Source: an uncultured Actinomycetes bacterium (GTDB lineage Bacteria; Actinomycetota; Acidimicrobiia; IMCC26256; JACDBD01). Taken from it: 64,000 nucleotides of DNA. A model generated the notes under the pieces. That model saw only the letters and a program-made list of their open reading frames with translations. It did no database searches and was not told where the DNA came from. The stretch spans positions 102,684-166,683 of the forward strand of contig CAVYIP010000008.1 of the NCBI GenBank assembly GCA_963768605.1, in the 5' to 3' direction. The position numbers and the translations under genes are program-made. Positions 1,032-47,226 of this stretch are shown here, piece by piece. Positions within the stretch are counted from its first letter, which is position 1. Each line of letters opens with the position of its first letter.

Positions 1032-2633
1032 TCACGACGGCACCGCTCGGGCCCGGAGCTCGTCCTTGACGACCTTCCCCGTGGCGTTCACGGGGAGGGC
1101 CTCGACGATCTCCACGAACCGCGGCACCTTGAAGTTGGCCATCTCGCCTCGTGCCCACTCCATGAGCTCGGCCGGCTCGAGCGGAGCGCCCGAGTCGACG
1201 ACGACGAACGCCATCCCCACCTCGCCGAGGCGCTCGTCGGGCACGCCGATCACGGCGGCCTGCGTCACCCGCGGGTGGCGGAGCAAGAGGTTCTCGATCT
1301 CTGCCGGGTACGCGTTGAACCCGCCGACGATGAACATGTCCTTGATGCGACCGACGATACGCAGGTACCCGTCGTCGTCGAACACGCCGAGGTCGCCGGT
1401 GTGGAGCCAGCCGTCGACGTCGATCGCGGCCGCGGTCGCCTCCGCATCGTCGAGGTACTTCCGCATCACGGTCTCGCCGCGTACGACGACCTCACCCGGC
1501 TCGCCCGGATCGGTGGTGCCACCGGCGTCGTCGACCGTTCGAACCTCGAAACCCGGCCACGGCGACGCCGACTGTGGTCGCGATGTGCTCGAAGTCGTCG
1601 TCGGGCTTGCTCCCGGTGACGGTGCCGGCCTCGGTGAGCCCGTACCCGGTGAGGATGCGCTCGAACGGGAGCTCTTCCCGGACGCGCCGGATGAGCTCGA
1701 CGGGGATGTCCGCCGCGCCGGTCACCGCGAGGCGCAGGCTCGAGATGTCCCGCCGGTCACGGTCGCCGTGTTCGAGCAACGACTGGTAGATGGTCGGCGG
1801 TCCCGGCAGCACCGAGATCCGTTCGCGCTCGACGAGCTCGAGCGCGACGCCCGGGTCGAACACGGCGAGCGGGACGATGGTGGCACCGCGCATGAGCGAG
1901 GCGAGGCAACCGGCCTTGTAGCCGAAGATGTGGAAGAACGGGTTCGCGATCAGGTAGCGGTCCCCCGTTCGCAGGTCGGCCCAGTCGCACCAGTCGAGGT
2001 AGGCGCGCAGGGTCTGGCCGTGCGTCATCACCACGCCCTTCGGCTCCCCCGTCGTCCCCGACGTGAACACGACGTCGCTCGGATCGTCGGGGCCGATCGA
2101 CTCGAGGCGCTCGTCGACGTCCCCGTCACGCACGGCACCACCGGCCGCGAGGAACTCGTCCCAACCCACCGACCGTCGCGCGGCACGCTTTGCCGACCGT
2201 GCCGCCCGACTGAGACGAGGACCGTGCGCTCGAGCGCGGGGAGCGGAACGCCGGCGGCGGCGAGCAGCGCCGGGTAGTCGGTGTCGAGGAAGCCGCGCAC
2301 CGTGAACAGGGCGCGGGCCCCGCTGCGGGCGAGGACGAAGGCCGCTTCGGGGCCGCGGAACCGGGTGTTGACGGGGACGAGCACCCCGCCCGCCGTCGTC
2401 ACGCCGAGCGCGGCGACGATCCACTCGAGTGAGTTCGGCGCCCAGACCGCGACCCGATCGCCTCGCCGGACTCCCGATGCGAGGAGCGCACGAGCCGCGT
2501 CGGTGACCATGGCCGAGAGCGCGGCGAAGTCGACGCGCCGGGTGCCGTCCACGACGGCCTCGGCGTCGCCGAAGCGCCGCGCCGCATCCCGCACCATCTC
2601 CGGAACCGACGGCCACGTGACCTCGCTGCGCAC
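1032..2633 (-). pseudogene. AMP-dependent acyl-CoA ligase (frame-disrupted)
   Basis: Three ORF fragments in different frames read as one ligase: N-term from GTG 2633 (VAVWAPNSLEWIV), core (TSGTTGEPKG, GYGLTE), C-term (HTGDLG...GKVVKDEL). Frame switches near ~2200 and ~1560. Confidence 0.8.
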
Positions 2634-2727
2634 CGCGGCTCTCCCCCCTCGCCTTCCGAAAACGGAGTTAGCATTTTTCGAGAGCGGGGTTATCATAGAC
2701 TGCGCTCGCCGCCGAGGGAACCCGCCG

Positions 2728-3746
2728 ATGCTGCTCGACCACGAGTTCCACCCCTTGGCCGTGGTGGACGTCGTCGACGAGACGGCCGACACCCGGTCGT
2801 TCGTCCTCGAGATCCCCCCGGAGCTCGAGTCGACGTTCGCCTACGCCGCCGGGCAGTACTGCACGTTCCGGGCCACCATCGACGGCGAGACGGTCTCTCG
2901 CTGCTACTCGATGTCGAGCTCGCCGGACGTGGGCGAGCGCTTCACCACGGCGGTCAAGCGCGTCCCCGGTGGGCGGATGTCGAACTGGATGAACGACACG
3001 CTCGAGCCGGGCGACACCATCGACGTGATGCGCCCGGCGGGGCTCTTCGTGCTCCGTGCGACCGACGCGCCGATCGTGGCGTTCGCCGGCGGCAGCGGCA
3101 TCACGCCGGTCATCTCGCTCGTCAAGAGCGCGCTCGCGACCACGGAACGGCCGATCGCTCTCGTCTACGCCAACCGCAGCGCGGACGCCGTCATCTTCTC
3201 CGAGGACCTCGAGCGCCTCCGCGCGGGGTCCGGTGGCCGGCTGACCGTCCATCACCACCACGATTCGGAACGCGGCTTCCTCGACGCCACCGACTGCGCC
3301 GCGCTCGTGGACGGCAGCACGCGACGCCGACTTCTACATCTGCGGACCGGGCCCCTATATGGACACCGTCGAAGCGGGGCTGTCGACGCTCGGTGTCGGC
3401 GCGGAGCGACGTTTCATCGAGCGCTTCGTCGTGCCTGCCGCAGAACCGGCGGCGGAGCAGGAGAGCGTCACCGAATCGCTCGTGATCCGGATCGATCGGC
3501 GCAAGCAGACGTTCCCGTACCAGGCCGGCGACACGATCCTCGAGGCCGCCCGGCGTGCCGGACTGAGCCCGCCGTTCTCGTGCGAGGCGGGTAGCTGCGC
3601 CACGTGCATGGCCCACCTCGACGAGGGATCCGTGACGATGCGCGTGAACAACGCGTTGGCGCGCGGACGAGGTCGACGAGGGCTGGGTCCTGACGTGCCA
3701 GTCGCTCCCCACGAGCCAGAAGGTCGTCGTCGACTACGACGCGTGA
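2728..3746 (+). pseudogene. FNR-type oxygenase reductase with C-terminal plant-type 2Fe-2S domain (KshB/PaaE architecture; frame-disrupted)
   Basis: ATG 2728. RCYSMSS FAD motif, GGSGITP NAD motif, then CEAGSCATC...LTCQS. Frame switches near ~3320 and ~3660; stop 3744-3746. Confidence 0.8.
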
Positions 3747-4891
3747 CCCGGCTGTCGACCGGGCCGGGCGACGAGGTCGTCGGTGTGCTCGTGCAGGCGC
3801 GGCGGCGGGCGGTACTCCGCCCCCTGGCCGTCGAACCGGATCGGGCTCGCGACCAGGTGCAGCGGTCCGTCTGTGGTCTCGACGGTGACGACCATCCCGC
3901 GCGAACGCACGAGCTCGCCGTCGAGCGCGTCGCCCAGGTCGGCGACGGCGCCGACGGCGATCCCGAGCGGGCGGAGGCGTTCGGTCCACTCCTCCGCCGA
4001 AGCCTCCTTCAGCCGCGCACCGAGCGCGTCCAGCAGCTCGGCGCGGTTCTCGAACCGCGCGTGCATGGTGGCGAAGCGCGGATCGTCCGCCCACTCGGGG
4101 CGACCGATCTCCACGGTCAGCCGGCGCCAGAACTCGTCGTGGGTCACGAACAGCGCGAGGTGGCCCGACGCCGTCTCGAACAGCTGCGCCGGCACGTAGA
4201 AGTTGTGAGCACCGAGCGGCTGACGAGCGGGGACCTCTCCGCCGTTGAGATACGCCGCCGCCTTGTAATTGAGCTGCGAGAGCATCACATCGAAGAGCGA
4301 GACGTCGACCTGCCCGCCCTTGCCTTCGTGCACCTTCGCGACGAGGGCCAGCGCCGCCATGATCGCCGACGAGTTGTCGACGGCGGAGTACCCGGGGAGC
4401 GTCGGGGGCCCGTCGGGCTCACCGGTCAAGCTGGCGACGCCGACACTCGCCTGGATGACGTAGTCGAAGGCGGGCCACTCGGCCGCCGGGCCCTCGAGGC
4501 CGTACCCGGTGAGAGCGACGCACACGATCTTCGGGTTGAACCGGCGCAACGACTCGTAGTCGAGACCGAGCTTGCGGATCGTCGACGGACGCAGGTTGAC
4601 GAGCAGCGCGTCGGCCGTCTCCGCCAGCGCGCCCAGCTCGGCCTGGCCCTCCTGGGTCGTGAGATCGATGTGCACGCTGCGCTTGTTGCGGTTCAGGCTC
4701 GCGAAGTACACGTTGTGCTCGCCGACGTAGTCCGACCCGACCTGCCGCGACAGGTCGCCGTCGATCGGCTCGATCTTGACCACGTCGGCGCCGAGGTCGG
4801 CCAGGAGCATGCCGGCGAAGGGCCCCGCCAGGATGTGTCCGACCTCGAGGATCCGGATGCCGGCGAGCGGGCCCGGCGACGCGTCCGACAC
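3734..4891 (-). CDS. family III CoA-transferase (CaiB/BaiF type)
   Basis: GTG 4891, 385 aa uninterrupted. IRILEVGHILAGPFAG N-terminus and overall CaiB-like sequence. Immediately downstream of the LLM gene stop. Confidence 0.85.
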   Translation of the reverse strand: MSDASPGPLAGIRILEVGHILAGPFAGMLLADLGADVVKIEPIDGDLSRQVGSDYVGEHNVYFASLNRNKRSVHIDLTTQEGQAELGALAETADALLVNLRPSTIRKLGLDYESLRRFNPKIVCVALTGYGLEGPAAEWPAFDYVIQASVGVASLTGEPDGPPTLPGYSAVDNSSAIMAALALVAKVHEGKGGQVDVSLFDVMLSQLNYKAAAYLNGGEVPARQPLGAHNFYVPAQLFETASGHLALFVTHDEFWRRLTVEIGRPEWADDPRFATMHARFENRAELLDALGARLKEASAEEWTERLRPLGIAVGAVADLGDALDGELVRSRGMVVTVETTDGPLHLVASPIRFDGQGAEYRPPPRLHEHTDDLVARPGRQPGHAS

Positions 4892-4899
4892 GGGCGCGC

Positions 4900-5857
4900 T
4901 CAGAGCTCGGGGCAGAGCGACGCGAGGAAGCTCGAGACCCGCTCGCGTGACTCGATGCGCGCGGCCCGGTCCTCGCCGAGCGGGAGCACGCGCACCGCGA
5001 GGTCGGTGACGCCCGCGTCGCGGAAGCTGCGCAAGCGGTCGACGACCGCGGTTTCGTCGCCGGCGGCGAGCACGTCGCCGACGTCGGTGGCGTCGCCGTG
5101 CTCGAGCAGCCGCTGGTAGTTCGGCGAGTACTCGGCGTGCCCGAGCACCTGGTTGGCCCACGCTGCGCGCGTCGTCGACCTCGTCGTCGGGGCACAGCGC
5201 CACCGGGACACCCGCCACGATGCGCGGGCTCGGGCGCCCGACCTCGGCCGCGGCCTTCGTGATGCGGGGCACGCACGTGCTCGCCGATCGCCCGCTCGTC
5301 CGCCATCCAGAGGATGGTCCCCGACGCGTGCTCGCCGGCGATGCGGAGCATCACCGGCGCGAGAGCCGCCAGGAGCACCGGCGTCGGCGATGTCGGTGAC
5401 GTCGAGTGGGTTGTGCACGCGGTAGCTGTCGTTCTCGACGTCGACCGGGCCGGGGCCGGCGAACGCGGCGTTGAGCACCTCGAGGTAGTCCCGCACCTGG
5501 CGGGCGGGCTTGTCGTAGGACAGCCCGAGCATGTCGTCGACGATCCAGTGGTGCGAAGGCCCGAGCCCGAGCGTGAACCGCCCTTCGCACACCGCCTGGT
5601 TCGACGAGCGCCTGCTGCGCCATCGCCACCGGGTGGCGGGTCTGGATCGGCAGCACCGCCGTCCCGAGCTCGACGCGGTCGGTCGCCCGGCCCATGAGCG
5701 CGATCGCGGTCAGCGCGTCGAAGTCGTCCGGGATCTGGGGAACCCAGATCGAGCGTGAAGCCGGCGCGCTCGGCGGCCTCGGCGTCGGCGACGAGCTCGC
5801 GCCACCTTCTGGCGCGTACCGCCCCTTCTCGGGGCCGATCATCAGCCCGATCCGCAT
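4900..5857 (-). pseudogene. luciferase-like (LLM) flavin/F420-dependent oxidoreductase (heavily frame-disrupted)
   Basis: Starts MRIGLMIGPEK at 5857. Conserved LLM segments are recoverable only by switching between all three frames (at least 5 switches). C-term reads ...DLAVRVLPLGEDRAARIE. Confidence 0.7.
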
Positions 5858-5880
5858 GCACGCCCCCTGCGCGGAGTGGC

Positions 5881-5918
5881 GATTGCCGAATGGCAATGAC
5901 GTTCTCGTTTTTCGAGAA
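5881..5918. promoter_or_regulatory. two perfect palindromes in the divergent LLM/SDR spacer (operator-like)
   Basis: ATTGCC-gaat-GGCAAT (5881-5896) and GTTCTCG-ttttt-CGAGAAC (5900-5918), inside a 128-bp low-GC divergent intergenic region. Confidence 0.5.
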
Positions 5919-5985
5919 CAGTCTTGCACCGGATCTCGACCATGGTCAATACTCACGGGAAGCGCACGTTCCGAAGGGGGAGCTC

Positions 5986-6733
5986 ATGGGTCGGGTGGCC
6001 GTCGTCACCGGCGCCGCATCCGGGATGGGGCTCGCGGTGAGCCGGCACCTCGCCGACCGCGGCCACCGGGTGGGGCTGCTCGACCTCGACGGCGACGCCG
6101 CGCGAGCGCGCCGCCGAGGACCTACGGGCGGGCGACGCGCGCGCGCTCGGCCTGCGAGGTCGACGTCACCGACCGTGCGGCGGTCGACGAAGCGCTGCGC
6201 AAGGTCCGCACCGAGCTCGGGCCCGTCGAGATCATGGTCACGAGCGCGGGCTCGACGAGTTCTGCCGCGTTCACCGACATCACCCCCGAGGCGTGGGCGC
6301 GGATCCTCGCGGTCAACCTCACGGGCACGTTCCACTGCCTGCAGGCGGCGGTCCCCGACATGCTGGCTGCGGGGTGGGGCCGCATCGTGACCATCTCGTC
6401 GTCGAGCGCGCAGTCCGGCGCGGCCAACATGGCGCACTACGTCGCGTCGAAGGGCGGCGTCATCGGCCTCACCAAGGCCCTGGCGGTCGAGCTCGCGCCC
6501 GCACGGCATCACCGTGAACACGATCCCTCCCGCGATTCATCGACACGCCGATGGCGCGCCGCGCCGAGAAGGCGGGCAACGTCCCGAGCATCGACACCAT
6601 CGCCGGCGCCACGCCCGTGCGGCGAGCCGGCACGCCCGAAGACATCGCCGCCACCTGCGCGTTCCTCTGCTCCGACGACGCCGGGTACATCACCGGGCAG
6701 CAGATCGGCGTCAACGGCGGGTGGTACCTGTGA
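5986..6733 (+). pseudogene. short-chain dehydrogenase/reductase (frame-disrupted)
   Basis: ATG 5986 preceded by GAAGGGGGA. TGAASGMG, YVASK, C-term [12 protein letters not shown]. Frame switches near ~6110, ~6505 and ~6540. Confidence 0.8.
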
Positions 6734-7355
6734 CCGCGGCCGCGGGGCCTCGCCTCGCTCCCCTGCCCGTCGAGCGCTGGGACGACGACGCCCGGGCGGC
6801 GTTGCAGGCCGGGTTCGGGAAGCAGGCGACCGACCGGTTCCTCTCGCCGGGGCCGGACGCGATCCCGGTGCCCAACGCGCTCACCACGCTCATGCACCAC
6901 CCCGGGCTCGCCGGGCCGTTCCTCGCGTTCAACAGCGTGCTCCTGTTCACGCCGGCGCTCGAACCGCGGCTGCGCGAGCTGATGGTGCTCCGGGTCGCGT
7001 GGCGGACGCGCTCGACCTACGAGTGGGTGCAGCACGTGCGCCTGGCGCAAGCGGTGCGGCGTCACGCACGAGGAGATCGAGGCCATCGGGCTCGGCGCCG
7101 CCGACGACGCGCCGTGGACGCCGCTCGAAGCCGACCTCCTCGCCGCGACCGACGAGCTGATCGACGGCTATCGCATCGACGACGCGACGTGGGCCCGCTT
7201 GGCCGAGCACCTCGACGAGCGCCAGCTCGTGGAGGTCGTGTTCGTCGTCGGCACGTACACGTGCCTGGCCATGGCCTTCAACAGCTTCGGGCTGCGAGCT
7301 CGACCCCGAGCTGCGAACGCTCGCGGCTCCGCCTCTCCCCGACTCGGAGGAGTAG
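6730..7355 (+). pseudogene. carboxymuconolactone decarboxylase (AhpD-like) family protein (frame-disrupted)
   Basis: GTG 6730 overlaps the SDR stop (GTGA). LMVLRVAWRTRSTYEWVQH-type CMD helices. Frame switches near ~7050 and ~7300; stop 7353-7355. Confidence 0.65.
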
Positions 7356-7359
7356 AGAG

Positions 7360-8648
7360 ATGGCTCGCATCGAGAAGCCGCCGGAAGGCAGCTGGACCGC
7401 GCACTACCCGGAGCTCGGCACCGGGCCGGTGTCGTACGAGGACTCGATCTCGCCCGAGTTCTACGAGCTCGAGCGCGAGGCGATCTTCAAGCGCACGTGG
7501 CTGAACGTCGGGCGGGTCGAGCAGCTGCCCCGCAAGGGGAGCTACTTCACCAAGGAGCTCGCGGTCGCGAACACGTCGATCGTCGTCGTGCGCGGCATGG
7601 ACGGCGAGGTGCGCGCGTTCCACAACATCTGCCGCCACCGCGGCAACAAGCTGGTGTGGACCGACTTCCCGCGCGAGGAGACGAGCGGCAGCTGCCGCCA
7701 GTTCGTGTGCAAGTACCACGGCTGGAGGTACGAGCTCGACGGCGCCTGCACGTTCGTGCAGCAGGAGGGCGAGTTCTTCGACCTCGACAAGGCCGACTAC
7801 GGGCTCGTGCCGGTGCACTGCGACGTGTGGTCGGGCTTCATCTTCGTGAACCTCGACCGACGAGCCGCGCCAGTCGCTGCGCGAGTTCCTCGGCCCGATG
7901 ATCGACCGCGATCGAGGGCTACCCGTTCGACGCAGATGACGGAGCGCTTCTCGTACCGCGCCGACGTCGGCAGCAACTGGAAGCTGTTCATCGACGCCTT
8001 CCAGGAGTTCTACCACGCACCCGTGCTGCACGCGAAGCAGTCGCCCGGTCGCGGCGCGTCCCGAAGTGCAGGCCGCCGGCTTCGAGGCGCTGCACTACCA
8101 GATCGACGGCCCGCACCGGCATGGTGACGACGTACCGGCGGGCGAAGGGTGGCGGATGCCGCCCGAGATGCTGAAGCCGATGGAGACGGTGACGCGCAGC
8201 GGCCTGTTCGGTCCGTGGGACGCGCCCGACCTCGGCCCGGACCCGTTGCCCGCGGGCGTCAACCCGGCCGACCGGAAGCACGTGGGGCCTCGACTCGTTC
8301 CAGTTCTGCCCGAACTTCGTGATCCTGATCTGGGAGCGAGGCTGGTACCTCACGTACCACTACTGGCCGACGTCGCACAACACGCACGTCTTCGAAGGGA
8401 ACCTCTACTTCGTCCCGCCGAAGAACGCGCGTGAGCGCCTCGCGCAGGAGATGGCCGCGGTCACGTTCAAGGAGTACGCGCTGCAGGACGGCAACACGCT
8501 CGAGGCGACGCAGACCATGCTCGAGTCACGCGTCGTGACCGCGTTCCCGCTGAACGACCAGGAGATCCTCTGCCGGCACCTGCACAAGGTGGCCGCCGAC
8601 TGGGTCGACGACTACACGCGCGAACGGGTGGAGGTGGGAGCCCGATGA
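7360..8648 (+). pseudogene. Rieske non-heme iron oxygenase alpha subunit (frame-disrupted)
   Basis: ATG 7360. Rieske CRHRG...CKYHGW and iron motif NWKLFIDAFQEFYHAPVLH. About four frame switches (~7860, ~7915, ~8050, ~8285). Confidence 0.8.
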
Positions 8649-8982
8649 GCGAAGCCCTGCTGCCCGGCGAGTTCTCCGAGCTGGAGCCGTTCGCCGCGAC
8701 GTGGTGCCTGCCGACCGAGCGGGAGCGGTTCGCGCAACGGATGACGAGCTCGATGGAGGAGATGCAGGCGTTCTACGACGCCTTCTTCCCGCGGGCCGAG
8801 GAAGCGATCGCAGTACTGCGACAAGTTCCCGCTCGACGACATGCCCGACGACGCGCGAGCGCTTGCTGCAGCTGCTGTACTCGCTCGTCATGGTGTCGTT
8901 CCCGGTCGAGGTCTGGCGCCAGCCGCACGTCCCCGACAGCGGCGCCGCCTACCTCGACCTCCTGATCGAACCGATCCCGTGA
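8645..8982 (+). pseudogene. small hypothetical protein coupled to the Rieske oxygenase (frame-disrupted)
   Basis: ATG 8645 overlaps the Rieske stop (ATGA). About 112 aa when read through one switch near ~8810. No family recognised. Confidence 0.45.
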
Positions 8983-10213
8983 GCGGACATCACCGTCCTG
9001 CGGGCGGACCGGTGGGTCGACGTCGACGCCGGGCTCGTCCGGTCGCCGGCGACCGTCGTCGTGGAGGGCGATCGCATCGCAGCCGTCGGCGCCGACGACC
9101 TGCCCGCCGGCGCGACGGAGATCGACCTCGGCGACGTCACGCTGCTCCCCGGCCTGATGGACATGGAGATCAACATGCTCCTGGGCGGGCCCCACGGCGG
9201 GAACCGGCGCAGCGACGTCCAGGACGACCCGGCGTTCCGCACCTTGCGCGGAACCGTGAACTGCCGCACGACGCTGCTCGCCGGGTTTCACGACCGTCCG
9301 CAACCTCGGCCTCTTCGTGAAGACCGGCGGCTATCTGCTCGACGTCGCGCTCGCGCGGGCGATCGACAACGGCTGGATCGACGGCCCGCGCATCGTGCCG
9401 GCCGGGCACGCCATCACGCCGACCGGTGGGCACCTCGATCCGACGATGTTCGAGCGGTTCGGGCCCGACATCATGCCGCTCAGCGTCGAGGAGGGCATCG
9501 CCAACGGCGTGCCCGAGGTGCGCAAGGCCGTCCGCTACCAGATCAAGTACGGCGCCCGCCTCATCAAGATCTCCGCATCGGGCGGCGTGATGTCGCACAG
9601 CGGCCTCGCCGGCGCGCAGCAGTACTCGGACGAGGAGCTGCGCGGCGATCGTCGACGAAGCGCACCGCGCCGGCATCAAGGTCGCGGCGCACGCGCACGG
9701 CGACGCCGGCATCAGGGCGTGCATCCGCGCCGGAGTCGACTGCATCGAGCACGGCTCGCTCGCGGAGCGACGAGACGATCCAGATGATGGTCGAGAACGG
9801 CACCTTCCTCGTGCCGACCAGCTACCTCTCCGAGGGTCTCGACATGTCGAGGGCGGCGCCCGAGCTCCAGGCCAAGGCGGCCGAGGTGTTCCCGCGGGCA
9901 CGGGCGATGCTCGGCAAGGCGATCGCGAGCGGCGTGAAGATCGCGTGCGGCACCGACGCGCCCGCGATCCCGCACGGCGAGAACGCCAAGGAGCTCTGGG
10001 CGATGGTCGACCGCGGCATGACGCCGATGCAGGCGCTGCAGGCGGCCACCGTGATGAGCGCCGAGCTCATCGGCGTCGACGACCGCGGGCCGGCTGGAGC
10101 CCGGGCTCCTCGCCGACATCGTCGCGGTACCGGGCGACCCGTCGGAGGACATCACGACGACGCAGGACGTGCGCTTCGTGATGAAGGGCGGGCGCGTCTA
10201 CAAGGGCGCCTGA
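8979..10213 (+). pseudogene. metal-dependent amidohydrolase (imidazolonepropionase/prolidase-like family; frame-disrupted)
   Basis: GTG 8979 overlaps the previous stop (GTGA). LLPGLMDMEIN, AAHAHG, CIEHG, CGTDAP motifs. About five frame switches (~8985, ~9290, ~9650, ~9765, ~10090). Confidence 0.75.
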
Positions 10214-41487: not shown

Positions 41488-42411
41488 TCAGCAGATCTTC
41501 GAGAGCGTCGCGTACGGGTCGACGGCGGGACCGCCCCCGGGGTGGATCTCGAAATGCAAGTGCGGCCCGGTCGCGTCGCCGGTCGCGCCCAGCTTGCCGA
41601 TGACCTCGCCCGGGCTCACGTGGCGCGGCGGGCCCACGTACGCGGACAAGTGGAAGTAGACGTACTTGTTCCCATCGTCGCCGGCGATGTACGCACCCAT
41701 CCCGCCGGCGCCGCCGTTGCCGTAGGTGACGTTGCCGCTCACCACCGCGAGCTCGGGGATGCCCATCGGCGCGTGCATGTCGATGCCCTCGTGGGTGCGC
41801 CCTCCGGGGCGGGGCCGGCCGAAGTCGTCGGTGAACGCGGCGCCGGGCACCGGGCACGCCATCCCGTCGATGATCTCCACCGGACCTCCCGCAGCGGCCG
41901 CGGCGAAGCTGGCGTCCATCCCGTTGAGCTGGTCGAGCGCGCCCTGCTGCTCTTTCTGCCGGTCGGCGAGCTGGTCGCGCTGGGCGGTGAGCTGGGCGTT
42001 CACCGCGCCGATCTCGTCGGCCAAGTGATCGTCGGCCTCGTTGGCCCGGTCGAGCAGTGCGGTCGAACGCGCGCCCTCGGTCGGGTTCTTCGCCTCGAAC
42101 AGCACCCCGAGGTCGGCGCCCGCGTTCTTGTATGCGACCGCTGCCCGCCGCTGCGCGATCGGTGCGCAGCTGGGCCCGACGCGCCTCCCCCTCCTGGATT
42201 TTCTGGTCGAGGGCGGCGATCTGGTCGTCGATCAGGTGGTAGCGAGTTTCGATGTCCGCGTACTGGGCCGCGGCGGCGGCATTGGCATCCCGCTGGGGGT
42301 TGGGGGCGGGCTGACCGGCCGCCGGGCGCGCCAGGAGCGCGATCCCGGCGGCCGCCACCGCGCAGATCGCGACGAGAACGCGCCAAACCGGCGCAAGTTG
42401 GCCCACTCGCA
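41488..42411 (-). pseudogene. secreted M23-family metallopeptidase with coiled-coil N-region (frame-disrupted)
   Basis: N-terminal TM/signal segment WRVLVAICAVAAAGIALL, coiled-coil, then HEGIDMHAP...GPHLHFEI. One switch near ~42150. Start approximate. Confidence 0.75.
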
Positions 42412-42588
42412 CGAGCGGGGACGCTAGCGAGCGCAGCTGTCCGCATGCAACGCAGAGGCGACAAGATGCGCGCCCGGGGTCTGCCGGAGCCCTTCGGATC
42501 CGGATACGAGACCCGGGACCGGGTCGGCGGTCGGGCCGGGCCTGACCGTCGCTGGGCTGTTCGACCGGCGCCTCGGGGACGCCCCGGG

Positions 42589-44163
42589 CTACGGCGCGAC
42601 CTTGAAGGCGCCGCGCATGAACGGGTGGATGCGGCAGAAGTAGGTATACGTGCCCGGCTTCAAGTCCGCCGGCGTGTCCCACGTGACGCGGCCCGCGGTC
42701 GGCGGCCCGGCCGCGCCGAGCTGCCCGGAGTCGAACTGCACACTCGAGTCTGCAAGCGGATACGCCACGCCCGTCTCCTTGTTGCACGGGGCGCGACATG
42801 CAGTGATCGAGTGCCAGATGCCGTTGGCATCCTTCGCGGCGTCGTTGTTCGTGAACGTGATCGACTGCCCGGCGTTGACCTTGGGGATCTGGTGCTTGCC
42901 CGTCGCGTCACCGACCGCGTAGAGAAAGTTGTCGATGCCGACCGAGGACGCATCTGTCGGCGCAAAGCGGCTCGCGTTGGGCAGCGTGGTCTTCTGCCCT
43001 CCGTGGTGGTTGTTCTCGGGCAAGTGCCCGTGGGTGAGCTCGCCCTTGGTGTCCACCTTGGTGGTGAACGGATCGCGTCCGCCCGTGCCGTCCGTGGCCC
43101 ACACGATCATGATGCCCATCGACTCGTACCAGGACGCGCGCTTGGAGTCGTAGGTCGTGTTGATCCGCAGCATGTCGCCCGCGTGCACCTGCACTCTCCA
43201 GTTGGGCGGCGTCGCCGTCATCGACACGTCCCAGCTGACCGCGCCGGCGGGCTCGAAGTAGTCGGCCACCGATCGGAAGAGGTGCGCGGTGTCCGGCTTG
43301 CCCGCTACGACGCTCGACCCCGGCGTACCGGTCGCGCCCGGACGATCCACGTACAGATCGTCGTGGAGGCCGCCGGGGTGCAGGTGGCCGGCGGTACCGA
43401 GCAGCACGCTGTCGCGGTCGACGCGCACCACGTTCTTCTGCCGGCCGCCGCCATAGGGATCGTTCGCCTGGTCGGGGTAGGTGAACGTGCCGTTCGTGCC
43501 CGAGCCCTTGATCACGTCGAACACCGGATAGATGCTGCCGCTCTGGACATCCATCCAGATCGGCCGCGCCGGCGTGATCTGCTGCGCGGCCGGCGACGAC
43601 GACGGGACGAAGTCGAGGTCGTAGGTGATCCACACCTGATACGGCCCCGGTGTGAGGTCGTGGATCATGTAGTTGATCCGCCAGTTGTCGGACGCCCGGT
43701 ACGGGTACCCGTAGCCGGTCGGCAACTTCATGATCGTCTTCTCTTCGCCGGCGGCGAAGAAGTTCGGCACTCCCCGAGAACGGTCGCGTTCGGCGGACTC
43801 GTTGAGCCACACGCCGTGGTGAAGGTGGATCACATCGACCGGCGGGACCTTGCCGTCCTTGGTGCGTAGGTTGGGATGGATCCCGACGATGTAGCCGTCC
43901 TCGGCCGGCTTCGGCACCTCACCTTCGCTGAAGGTGATGTTGTTCTGGCCCGGCTGAATCTGGACCGGCCCGTACTTGAAGTGCAGGTGCTGCACTCCGG
44001 GCTGATCCGGGGCCCACGGCGACGCCTTCCGCCTCGCGGGCCTGACAGGTTTGGCGCCGGCGGAGCTCGTGATCACCGTGGCGAGGGCGACCGTCAGCGC
44101 GGCGACAATCAGAGCCGCGACCACCCTTGGCCGAACTCGAACCCCGCTCGCCTGACCGGGCAC
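42589..44163 (-). CDS. secreted copper protein: PHM/DBH-like monooxygenase-type domain fused to a C-terminal cupredoxin
   Basis: 524 aa uninterrupted. Signal/TM segment VVAALIVAALTVALATV. His/Met motif order HLHHG, MIHD, GHLHPGG, ESMGIM. C-terminal type-1 Cu ligands IWH...YFCRIHPFM. Confidence 0.6.
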   Translation of the reverse strand: MPGQASGVRVRPRVVAALIVAALTVALATVITSSAGAKPVRPARRKASPWAPDQPGVQHLHFKYGPVQIQPGQNNITFSEGEVPKPAEDGYIVGIHPNLRTKDGKVPPVDVIHLHHGVWLNESAERDRSRGVPNFFAAGEEKTIMKLPTGYGYPYRASDNWRINYMIHDLTPGPYQVWITYDLDFVPSSSPAAQQITPARPIWMDVQSGSIYPVFDVIKGSGTNGTFTYPDQANDPYGGGRQKNVVRVDRDSVLLGTAGHLHPGGLHDDLYVDRPGATGTPGSSVVAGKPDTAHLFRSVADYFEPAGAVSWDVSMTATPPNWRVQVHAGDMLRINTTYDSKRASWYESMGIMIVWATDGTGGRDPFTTKVDTKGELTHGHLPENNHHGGQKTTLPNASRFAPTDASSVGIDNFLYAVGDATGKHQIPKVNAGQSITFTNNDAAKDANGIWHSITACRAPCNKETGVAYPLADSSVQFDSGQLGAAGPPTAGRVTWDTPADLKPGTYTYFCRIHPFMRGAFKVAP

Positions 44164-45107: not shown

Positions 45108-45836
45108 TCAGGAGATGAACTGCTGCCCGCCGTCGATGTCGTACGTCGCGCCGGTGAGCGCCGTGTTGGTCATGATGTGGACGGCGAGCGCGGCGACGTC
45201 GGCGGGCCCGACGACGCGGCCGATCGGGAGCGTCGCCCGCAGCTCGTTCCGGCGCTCGTCGAGTTGATCTCCGAGCAGCGACGCCGACAACGGGGTGTCG
45301 ACGAAGCCGGCGTGCGATGAGGTTGACGCGAACCGGCGCGATCTCGAGCGCGAGGGCTCGCCGACGAACGGAGGCAGCGCGGCGGTGGCCGGAAGCGGCG
45401 ATCCCGAGACGCGTGATCGATGCGCCGGCCGCCGGTGCCGCCCATGAACAGCAGCGTGCCTCCGGGCCTCATCTTGCCGACCGCGTTGCGCGCGACCTCG
45501 AGCGCCAGCGCCACGTGGCCGCTGAGCACCTCGCGCACGTCGGCCGCGTCCATCTCGAGCAGCGGCGCGTAGCGCGGGCCGGGGCCGGTGACCATCACAT
45601 GGTCGATCGGATCCGGCAGATCCTCGGAAGAACGCCTCCAGGGAGGCCGTGTCGTTGGCGTCGAAGGCGGCGGTGCTCCGGGCGCCGACTTCCTGCGCCG
45701 CTTGCTCGAGGCGATCGGGATTGCGGGCGGCGAGGACGACCTCGGCACCCTCGGCCCGGGCGCGTCGAGCAGTCTCGAGCCCGATCCCTGCGCTGCCGCC
45801 GATCACGACGACGGTCTGTCCGTCCAGTTCCCTCAC
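45108..45836 (-). pseudogene. short-chain dehydrogenase/reductase (frame-disrupted)
   Basis: VVVIGGSAGIG N-term and TGATYDIDGGQQ C-term share one frame; the middle lies in two other frames (at least 3 switches). Confidence 0.7.
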
Positions 45837-45845
45837 GTCGTCGCC

Positions 45846-47226
45846 TCAGCCCGACATGTTCGCCATCTGCGCGTCCATCGGGCCGACCGGCGGCGGCATG
45901 TCCGCGATCTTCATCCGGAGTGCCTTCACGACTGTGTCGTAGATCCCCGACCAGCTCGGGAAGGGCTGGATCGTGTCGCCGAGCACCTCGACCGGGACAT
46001 GGGCGCGGATGGCGAGCGTCGCCTGCTGCAGCCACTCACCGGCTTCGGGCCCGAGCGCGTAGGCGCCGGTCAGGCGCTCGCCGTCGCTGAGGAGCGTCAT
46101 GAACCCGTTGGACTCGGCGTACGCGTGTGTGTACGTCGCCGCCTTCGGCACGTCTGACACGGGACAGGTGGCGCTGTACTCGCCTTCGAGCGCTCCCACC
46201 GCCGCCGCCTGAGGATCGGTGTAGGTGACGCGCGGAACGGCTTCGTAGTTCGCCGGGACGCCCGTCGCCGGCGATGTTCTCGGCGACGACGTCTCCCTCG
46301 TATTCGCCGACATGCGTCAGCGGCCAGATGCCGGTGACGTCGCCGATCGCCCAGAGGCGCTCGCCGACACGCAGGTGGTCGTCGACCGGGATCCCGTGGG
46401 GGTTGGCCTCGACGCCCACCGTCTCGAGCCCGATCCCCTCGACACGTGGTCGACGGCCGGTTGCGACGAGCAGCCGGTCGCCCCGGACCTCCGTTCCGCC
46501 GTCGAACTCCAGGACGTACTCGTCACCCTCTCGCCGGGCGGCGGTGGCGTGCATCCCGAGCGTCAGCTCGATGCCGCCGCGCCGTAGGGCCTCGCCGAGC
46601 GCCTCGCCCAGCGGCGCCGCCTCGCGGGGAAGCACGCGGTCGCCACCCTCGACGACCACGGCCTCGCCGCCGAGACGGCGCACGACCTGCGCCATCTCGA
46701 CTCCGACCGGCCCGCCGCCCAGGATCAGGAGGCGGCGCGGGACCGCCTTCATGCCCGTCGCCTCACGGTTGGTCCACACGCCGTCGAGCTCGCGCAGCCC
46801 CGGAACCGGCGGCACGATCGGATCAGCACCGGCCGCGATGACGACGTGGTCGGCCGTGTGGCGCTCGCCGTCGACCTCGACCGCCCCCGTGCCGGCAAGT
46901 CGGCCGGTACCGCGCAGGAGGGCGATGCCCCGGTCCGCCAGCCAGTGCTCCTGGCCGGCGTCGGAGTAGTTCGACACCATGAAGTCCCGCCACGCCAGCG
47001 CGTCCTGCACGTCGACCTGCGCGCTCGCACCCGCGTCGCGCGCGCCCTGCACCGCCTCGCCCGGGCGCAGCAGCGACTTCGACGGAATGCAAGCCCAGTA
47101 GGAGCACTCGCCGCCGACCAGCTCTCGCTCGACAACGGCGACGCGCAGCCCGCGCGCCGCCAGCGCCGCCGCGCAGTGCTCGCCGGGGGCCCCGCCGCCG
47201 AGAACGATCGCGTCGTAGTCGCTCAC
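45846..47226 (-). pseudogene. FAD-dependent pyridine nucleotide-disulfide oxidoreductase (dihydrolipoyl dehydrogenase/mycothione reductase-like; frame-disrupted)
   Basis: GTG 47226 overlaps the upstream stop. YDAIVLGGGAPG, redox disulfide GGECSYWACIPSK. One switch near ~46265. Confidence 0.8.

Follow-up and report, generated by a model that had tools for sequence, protein, structure and literature searches.

Peptidylglycine alpha-hydroxylating monooxygenase (PHM), dopamine beta-monooxygenase (DBH) and tyramine beta-monooxygenase (TBM) are the textbook non-coupled binuclear copper monooxygenases of animals. They are built from tandem jelly-roll domains (Pfam families PF01082 and PF03712) in which an HH...H motif, the CuH site, is followed by an HxH...M motif, the CuM site; they act in an extracytoplasmic or secretory location and use soluble ascorbate. 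The His2Met arrangement is the hallmark of their O2-activating CuM site, and the way in which electrons cross from CuH to CuM is still debated. DBH carries an N-terminal DOMON domain in addition. Here we describe a gene from an uncultured Actinomycetes bacterium, located in a window of 64,000 nucleotides (the whole stretch of DNA analysed) on contig CAVYIP010000008.1. The gene occupies positions 42589..44163 on the minus strand, as do all of its features given below, and comprises 524 codons between a GTG start at 44163 and a stop codon at 42589-42591, as determined from the open reading frame (ORF) list and by re-translation. Its product has in common with the animal enzymes the predicted tandem jelly-rolls, the order of the two motifs and the probable extracytoplasmic location; it differs from them in its bacterial host and in a fused type-1 copper (T1) domain. 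We consider it likely, if with some reservation, that the protein is an exported three-copper redox enzyme in which electrons would pass from T1 via a CuH-like to a CuM-like site, and which would catalyse the O2-dependent oxidation of a substrate other than a glycine-extended peptide.

A full-length AlphaFold2 model, calculated from an alignment of 40 homologues (down to about 55% identity), is all-beta with a mean pLDDT of 80 and a pTM of 0.80, and a model of residues 50-395 alone reached a pTM of 0.83. In Foldseek searches of 350,542 PDB chains, the top matches of the full model were about two dozen PHM entries (E-values from 2.8e-7, probability 1.0, about 360 aligned columns, TM up to 0.60 when normalised to PHM); human DBH (4zel) was found with an E-value of 2.5e-5, and the C-terminal domain matched amicyanin (E 4.7e-4, probability 1.0). 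For the model of the N-terminal module (N-module) alone, the top 17 matches were all PHM or DBH, with E-values from 4.3e-7, TM of 0.42-0.51 and a root-mean-square deviation (rmsd) of 8-10 A, and were followed at lower ranks by double-jelly-roll capsid proteins (TM about 0.2), DUF2961 (TM 0.34) and an arabinofuranosidase. Over both models, the PHM and DBH matches span E-values of 3e-7 to 1e-5, target-normalised TM of 0.42-0.60 and an rmsd of 8-11 A. An initial annotation of this DNA had read the protein as a PHM/DBH-like monooxygenase fused to its own cupredoxin; the comparison of predicted structures that it proposed recovered both PHM and amicyanin, and instead of an unrelated fold the best PDB matches of the N-terminal part were PHM and DBH for either model. 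The models point to a PHM-type two-domain jelly-roll fold in residues 56-365 or thereabouts. The match is moderate yet specific, and its moderate TM and rmsd values are plausibly due to differences in the domain hinge and to insertions. The putative equivalent of the PHM CuH domain extends over residues 56-210 (43534..43998) and that of the CuM domain over residues 211-365 (43069..43533), both delimited by the models, the Foldseek matches, profile alignments with hhalign (per domain for the first) and conservation.

We predict one mononuclear copper in each of the two jelly-roll domains. In the first domain, H115, H116 and H168 (43660-43662), possibly together with H113 (43825..43827), would form the CuH-like electron-transfer site; the former two and H113 are part of an HLHH motif at residues 113-116 (codons 43816-43827). 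The CuM-like site in the second domain, at which O2 would be bound and the substrate oxidised, would consist of H260 and H262 (H260-L-H262, 43378-43386) and M349 (43117-43119); a variable loop in this domain comprises residues 272-294. The predicted ligands of the type-1 copper in the cupredoxin domain are H451 (42811-42813) and C510, H513 and M516, which are arranged as C510-x2-H513-x2-M516 (42616-42636). All motifs quoted in the initial annotation were recovered from the translation, and their window coordinates were verified by re-translation: GYIVGIHP...VIHLHHGVWL at residues 90-120, KLPTGYGYPY...RINYMIHDL at 146-170, LLGTAGHLHPGGL at 254-266, WYESMGIMIVW at 345-355, IWH at 449-451 and YFCRIHPFM at 508-516.

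Among the 40 homologues of the close alignment, H113, H115, H116, H168, H260, H262, M349, H451, C510, H513 and M516 are all invariant. Conservation extends to a sample of 43 full-length, mutually divergent representatives, in which H116 and H168 are present in all 43 sequences, H115 in 41 and H260 and H262 in 40 each; M349 is found in 41, with gaps in the remaining two. In a set of 63 sequences, H260, H262 and M349 are each retained in 60-61. H113 was retained in 36 of the 43 representatives and replaced by methionine, another copper ligand, in five; such His-to-Met exchanges are typical of copper ligands. A further conserved histidine, H378 (43030-43032), was identified in the alignments within a THG motif of the linker that follows the second jelly-roll (residues 366-420, 42904..43068; conserved segment LTHGHLPEN..HGG) and is kept in 38 of the 43 representatives. 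PHM has a counterpart neither of H113, which precedes the HH pair by two residues, nor of the THG histidine after domain II; H113 and H378 may represent extra copper ligands or be part of an electron path from T1 to the CuH-like site. For the cupredoxin domain, the complete type-1 ligand pattern was detected in 160 of 270 retrieved members and CxxHxxM near the C-terminus in 163 of 270, most of the others being fragments, and the C-x2-H-P-x-M loop is near-constant across the family. In line with the copper sites proposed in the initial annotation, the His and Met ligands are invariant or nearly so among the homologues.

To compare the N-module with PHM at the sequence level, homologues of the rat PHM core, whose sequence was verified against PDB entry 1SDW, were collected, aligned and compared with the family alignment by hhalign in local and per-domain modes; in global mode, no useful alignment was obtained for the whole N-module or domain II. 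The whole N-module aligned with PHM over 85 columns (P = 0.0024, probability 12%). Domain I and PHM domain I aligned over 118 columns (P = 4.8e-4), with H115 on PHM H107, H116 on H108 and H168 on H172, and controls in which domain I was aligned with domain II and vice versa gave P = 0.93-0.95. Domain II aligned with P of about 0.007-0.012, with RVQVHAGDMLRINTTYDS opposite PVDVTFGDILAARCVFTG as the common block; H260 and H262 fall on PHM H242 and H244 when the variable loop is retained, and M349 (ESM) is paired with PHM M314 (DEM) in one of two near-equivalent alignment paths. It is this path that agrees with the structural model, in which the methionine directly precedes the beta-strand of residues 350-358. 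At the sequence level, the similarity to PHM lies in the twilight zone, yet it is specific to the domain, runs collinearly and matches the register predicted by the hypothesis of two PHM-like copper sites. Fold, conservation and profile register together uphold the PHM-like order of the CuH and CuM motifs that the initial annotation had noticed.

A non-redox role of the N-module, either as a glycosidase similar to PNGase F or as a jelly-roll that binds carbohydrate, with a coincidental His/Met pattern and the cupredoxin as a passenger, has to be weighed here, since the PHM fold also occurs in proteins without copper, the similarity to PHM at the sequence level is statistically weak, and DUF2961 and an arabinofuranosidase are among the weaker structural matches. 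We regard this as very improbable: PHM and DBH outrank every other fold, six invariant residues of the right chemistry map onto the six ligands of PHM by profile alignment, and neither a hydrolase nor a binding module would explain why a redox domain is obligatorily attached.

Similarity to PHM is not equivalent to the activity of PHM. The residues R240, N316 and Y318, which flank the CuM ligands of PHM, bind the carboxylate of the substrate glycine in crystal structures of PHM with substrate; the equivalent positions in the family are occupied by A/G258, I351 and V/I353, conserved small or hydrophobic residues. Because of these replacements, a peptidylglycine substrate seems unlikely. Furthermore, identity to PHM, DBH and TBM is about 10-13%, Pfam membership is not detectable, and the PHM-family alignment contains invariant cysteine columns, whereas the only cysteines of the protein are C456, C460 and C510, so that the disulfides of PHM are absent. 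Judged from the models and the alignments, the protein is PHM-like in its predicted fold and site layout and is not a member of the PHM/DBH families.

A number of observations weigh against the interpretation as a PHM-like monooxygenase. Searches with PF01082 and PF03712, which the initial annotation had suggested as a check, gave no match at E <= 10 in the protein and 82 other family members; neither PHM nor DBH was found in sequence and profile searches of the PDB, and Pfam and NCBIfam left the N-module unconnected to PHM. The hhalign probabilities amount to only 12-14%, the PHM disulfides are missing (35 of 63 N-modules do not contain any cysteine), and the substrate-binding residues R240, N316 and Y318 have no conserved equivalents. 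With a TM of about 0.5 and an rmsd of 8-9 A, the structural agreement is moderate, and it depends on AlphaFold predictions. In the loci examined, no conserved neighbour hints at a substrate or an electron donor, and the literature search found no experimental data for any family member.

The C-terminal cupredoxin domain (residues 421-524, 42592..42903) was delimited by its matches to amicyanin and by motif counts. In sequence searches, amicyanin was found by the profile against the PDB (E 6.9e-4) and through TIGR02657 (E 1e-4). The scores of the protein remain below the curated cut-offs of the respective models (PF00127, 16.3 versus 21.2 bits; PF13473, 15.4 versus 27; TIGR02657, 22.5 versus 110). 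A relative, P0303, exceeds the PF00127 cut-off with 34 bits, and the search with the Copper-bind model proposed in the initial annotation was thus positive for this relative and negative for the protein itself. By these scores, the C-terminus is a divergent cupredoxin and not an amicyanin equivalog. The initial claim of a type-1 copper domain is nevertheless borne out by sequence and fold, and by the same C-x2-H-x2-M spacing: the ligand set His...Cys-x2-His-x2-Met is identical in amicyanin, and the ligand loop reads YHCTPHPFMRG in amicyanin and YFCRIHPFMRG here. In contrast to amicyanin, which is a free carrier, the cupredoxin domain is covalently fused to a predicted catalytic module and contains an extra pair of invariant cysteines, C456 and C460, which may form a disulfide. 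The linker showed a lower pLDDT than the rest of the model, and a value below 50 once the cupredoxin was removed. Among the 185 retrieved members with an N-module that is not cut short at its C-terminal end, a C..H..M pattern follows downstream in 157, and the other 28 are truncated at contig ends or were called out of frame. By these counts, the fusion of the N-module and the cupredoxin is family-wide.

This basic architecture has been elaborated in several family members. In P0303 and P0404 (L026, 8001..11636, and L027, 2152..5787), proteins of 1,211 amino acids (aa), a beta-propeller of the PQQ/BamB type is inserted behind the PHM-like module and ahead of the cupredoxin. Both loci adjoin genes for a phage-type integrase, a MobL-like protein and an RHS-repeat protein, suggesting that this part of the genome is mobile or variable. 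P0432 (625 aa) and P0454 (586 aa) contain RTX/haemolysin-type calcium-binding repeats (PF00353), suggesting that these members could be type-I-secreted versions in Gram-negative hosts. The contig L025 encodes five tandem paralogues of 523, 515, 514, 525 and at least 494 aa in one orientation (2007..9900), with overlapping stop and start codons at three of the four junctions. These paralogues are roughly 50-57% identical to the family member P0273, all five keep the HxHH, H, HxH, M and THG residues, including the counterpart of H378, and the GC content of the contig (60%) indicates an organism different from that of the window.

Residues 1-37 (44053..44163) likely represent an export signal or membrane anchor, composed of RVRPR, a hydrophobic core and SSAGA according to sequence and alignment. 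The hydrophobic, signal- or anchor-like stretch consists of RVRPR followed by VVAALIVAALTVALATVITSSAGA, and agrees with the N-terminal signal or transmembrane segment of the initial annotation. A lipobox-like cysteine is found at the N-terminus of 89 out of 195 homologues (about 46%, counted by regular expression), and the others have a plain signal or anchor. Because the N-termini are of the signal or lipoprotein type throughout, the family is probably extracytoplasmic, either secreted or membrane-tethered.

The analysis shows the predicted fold, conserved ligands in the register of those of PHM and a fusion that is constant in the family; the binding of copper, the direction in which electrons travel, an oxygenase reaction and the substrate are inferred. 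In the mechanism that we propose, T1 would receive electrons one at a time from outside the protein. The donor would probably be associated with the membrane, since many members are lipoproteins; a cytochrome of this kind or another cupredoxin is plausible. T1 would then relay the electrons to the CuH-like site, taking the role of ascorbate in the animal enzymes, and O2 would be activated at the His2Met CuM-like site, leading to hydroxylation or oxidation of the bound substrate. The initial annotation had called such an enzyme self-sufficient. This is too strong, because the T1 domain would relay electrons and not be their source: a type-1 copper is a one-electron relay, and an external reductant is still required.

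The same architecture would also be compatible with a reversed flow, in which an oxidase or dehydrogenase, or an enzyme reducing oxyanions in the manner of NirK, exchanges electrons with the respiratory chain through the cupredoxin and inserts no oxygen. The closest relative of the cupredoxin domain, amicyanin, is a dedicated respiratory electron carrier for methylamine dehydrogenase, and PQQ-type beta-propellers such as that of P0303 and P0404 are typical of periplasmic dehydrogenases. Copper nitrite reductases with a tethered cupredoxin (6hbe, 9cck), which were among the matches in sequence and fold searches, provide a precedent for a T1 domain fused as a built-in electron partner. Their core, however, is formed by cupredoxin trimers with a type-2 (T2) copper site at the subunit interfaces, unlike the PHM-type double jelly-roll, and the NirK matches stem from the cupredoxin domain alone (TM 0.15-0.19). 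Moreover, the invariant His2Met set corresponds to the O2-activating CuM of PHM, DBH and TBM and not to the T2 site of NirK, and T1 is not joined to the catalytic copper through a Cys-His bridge, as its ligands reside in a separate domain. Reversed flow is therefore an explanation that we consider unlikely, and we favour electron flow from T1 towards O2 at the CuM-like site.

The protein belongs to a very large family. A word-indexed search retrieved more than 3,600 homologues, nearly all of 470-590 aa, aligning from end to end and having no precomputed Pfam domain; they are named 'plastocyanin' (JGI) or 'hypothetical protein' (NCBI) in public databases, which leaves the catalytic module unannotated. 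With the N-terminal 346 residues, an exhaustive hidden Markov model (HMM) search yielded 1,693 clusters at 50% identity (E <= 1e-3), 347 of them at E <= 1e-30. The best 150 of the 1,693 clusters are all family members, and distant relatives such as Nod19 and PHM are beyond the reach of this search; the results of a word-indexed search seeded with P0273 were likewise filled by family members. The closest relatives (88-92% identity) are encoded in metagenome-assembled genomes (MAGs) of Acidimicrobiia and Actinomycetota, and remoter copies in MAGs of Solirubrobacterales and Frankiaceae. A tblastn search of the plasmids in PLSDB gave no match.

The nearest family at the sequence level appears to be SURNod19 ('stress up-regulated Nod 19', PF07712), in a superfamily relationship that would not amount to membership for the protein described here. 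The protein itself gives no PF07712 match, and three of the 40 close members match marginally. P0273 reaches 25.7 bits (cut-off 25; E 6.3e-6) with residues 224-319 on profile positions 276-368; residues 230-266 of P0247, containing GHVHTGG, match positions 268-304 (E 7.9e-4), and residues 71-112 of P0327, containing HLHH, match positions 27-67 (E 0.11). Weak matches were also obtained for P0303 (E 0.016) and P0275 (E 0.012). The matches are collinear and span the HLHH, GHxHxGG and ExM segments, and the precomputed Pfam column independently assigns PF07712 to P0273 and P0435. To our knowledge, Nod19 proteins do not contain a cupredoxin, and superfamily-level databases may already tag Nod19 as PHM-like. 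Nod19/MtN19 is a secretory family of plants and fungi to which no function has been assigned (PMC3882225, PMC9632046), with proteins of about 400 aa (PMC3882225). In common bean, miR398 has been validated as targeting the Nod19 mRNA, which declines under copper deficiency alongside that of Cu/Zn superoxide dismutase (PMC3882225). Such behaviour would be expected of a dispensable copper protein, a claim which is ours and is not made in PMC3882225. In a literature search that covered few subscription journals, we found no description of this family, of a PHM-type enzyme from bacteria to which a cupredoxin is fused, or of a link between Nod19 and PHM; the initial annotation likewise knew of no characterised bacterial enzyme with this fusion. 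Fold, site chemistry and cupredoxin tethering each have precedents; their combination and the very large family are undescribed.

The genomic context was analysed at 27 loci, by ORF clustering of L001-L024 and the window and by gene tables for L023-L027. No gene is conserved beside the family in these loci, and genes for copper homeostasis, cytochromes or biosynthetic clusters do not recur. This bears on the question whether the protein might serve in copper sequestration, delivery or resistance, with its histidines and methionines buffering extracytoplasmic copper as in CopI-type proteins. The probable extracytoplasmic location and the many conserved His and Met residues would fit such a role, and cupredoxin-like copper-tolerance proteins are known (PMC13308877). 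We nevertheless hold it to be improbable: cop, cus, sco or other copper-homeostasis genes are absent from the vicinity of any locus examined, and His/Met-rich low-complexity tracts are absent from the protein. Its ligands instead occupy the catalytic positions of PHM in a rigidly conserved scaffold of 350 residues with many invariant Asp, Glu, Trp and Tyr, and arrays of five diverged paralogues are better explained by substrate diversification. Around the more distantly related members, the neighbouring genes are entirely different. The gene seems to stand alone, and its surroundings are silent on the substrate of the proposed copper enzyme.

Downstream of the gene, the ORF at 41488..42105 on the minus strand encodes the catalytic domain of an M23 peptidase (Peptidase_M23, E 3.4e-18), as stated in the initial annotation, which had taken this neighbour as a hint at a cell-envelope or peptide substrate. 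The peptidase gene is, however, split over two frames (approximately 41488..42430, minus strand) by a frameshift near 42160, with a signal peptide and a coiled coil encoded in the other frame. Compared with L002, in which an intact frame of 338 codons is present, and with L012, the window contains an insertion of one nucleotide, reflecting either a pseudogene or an assembly error. Outside the window, the M23 gene accompanies the family member in the three closest relatives only, and in two of these another gene separates them; we have rejected the peptidase as a clue to the substrate, as it is frameshifted in the window and adjacent in the closest relatives only. The intervening gene in L002 (2387..2998) and L012 (9491..10102) lies on the strand opposite to the family member, is absent from this position in the window, and encodes a product of 203 aa that starts with an Arg-rich stretch and continues with a transmembrane segment (MTRRRRTGRGRLRAPYVAGALLL...). 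Upstream of the gene, the frame appears to switch part-way in an SDR-like gene (45108..45836, minus strand) and in a gene similar to pyridine-nucleotide disulfide oxidoreductases (45846..47100, minus strand), which suggests that the assembly is error-prone (long-read) or that the genome contains several pseudogenes.

In contrast to these neighbouring genes, the ORF of the copper protein is unbroken. Long spurious ORFs are common in the window because of its high GC content (65-72%), an example being an Arg-rich ORF of 775 codons on the plus strand, opposite the gene. The ORF at 42589..44163 is a real gene, because it has more than 3,600 full-length homologues and its N-terminal part matches the 1,693 clusters. 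Its place was given exactly in the initial annotation, to which we add the minus strand. The start codon is slightly ambiguous, to judge from an in-frame GTG at 44124, the equivalent of which was called as the start in P0001 (92% identical); initiation at the GTG at 44163 would provide the positively charged n-region RVRPR. A promoter scan of the gene found no sigma-70-like sites, as expected in high-GC Actinomycetota, and the sole terminator-like matches in the corresponding scan are inside the gene on the wrong strand.

A bolder and less probable reading is that the family comprises previously unrecognised bacterial extracellular three-copper monooxygenases that have diversified by tandem arrays and by fusion to propeller and RTX domains, and that the Nod19/MtN19 proteins of plants and fungi are copper monooxygenases by homology. 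If this is true, the substrates of the bacterial enzymes would be environmental or located at cell surfaces, in analogy to lytic polysaccharide monooxygenases acting on polysaccharides. A large bacterial family with the CuH- and CuM-like sites, to which a spectroscopically distinct type-1 copper is covalently linked, would indicate an ancient and widespread architecture in soil Actinomycetota and other bacteria and would supply new O2-activating copper biocatalysts that are independent of ascorbate. It would in addition offer a natural system in which electron entry could be triggered and followed optically. For plants and fungi, a Nod19 copper monooxygenase would explain the regulation by miR398 in terms of copper economy, and the bridge to SURNod19 would provide a concrete biochemical hypothesis for a family associated with stress and nodulation.

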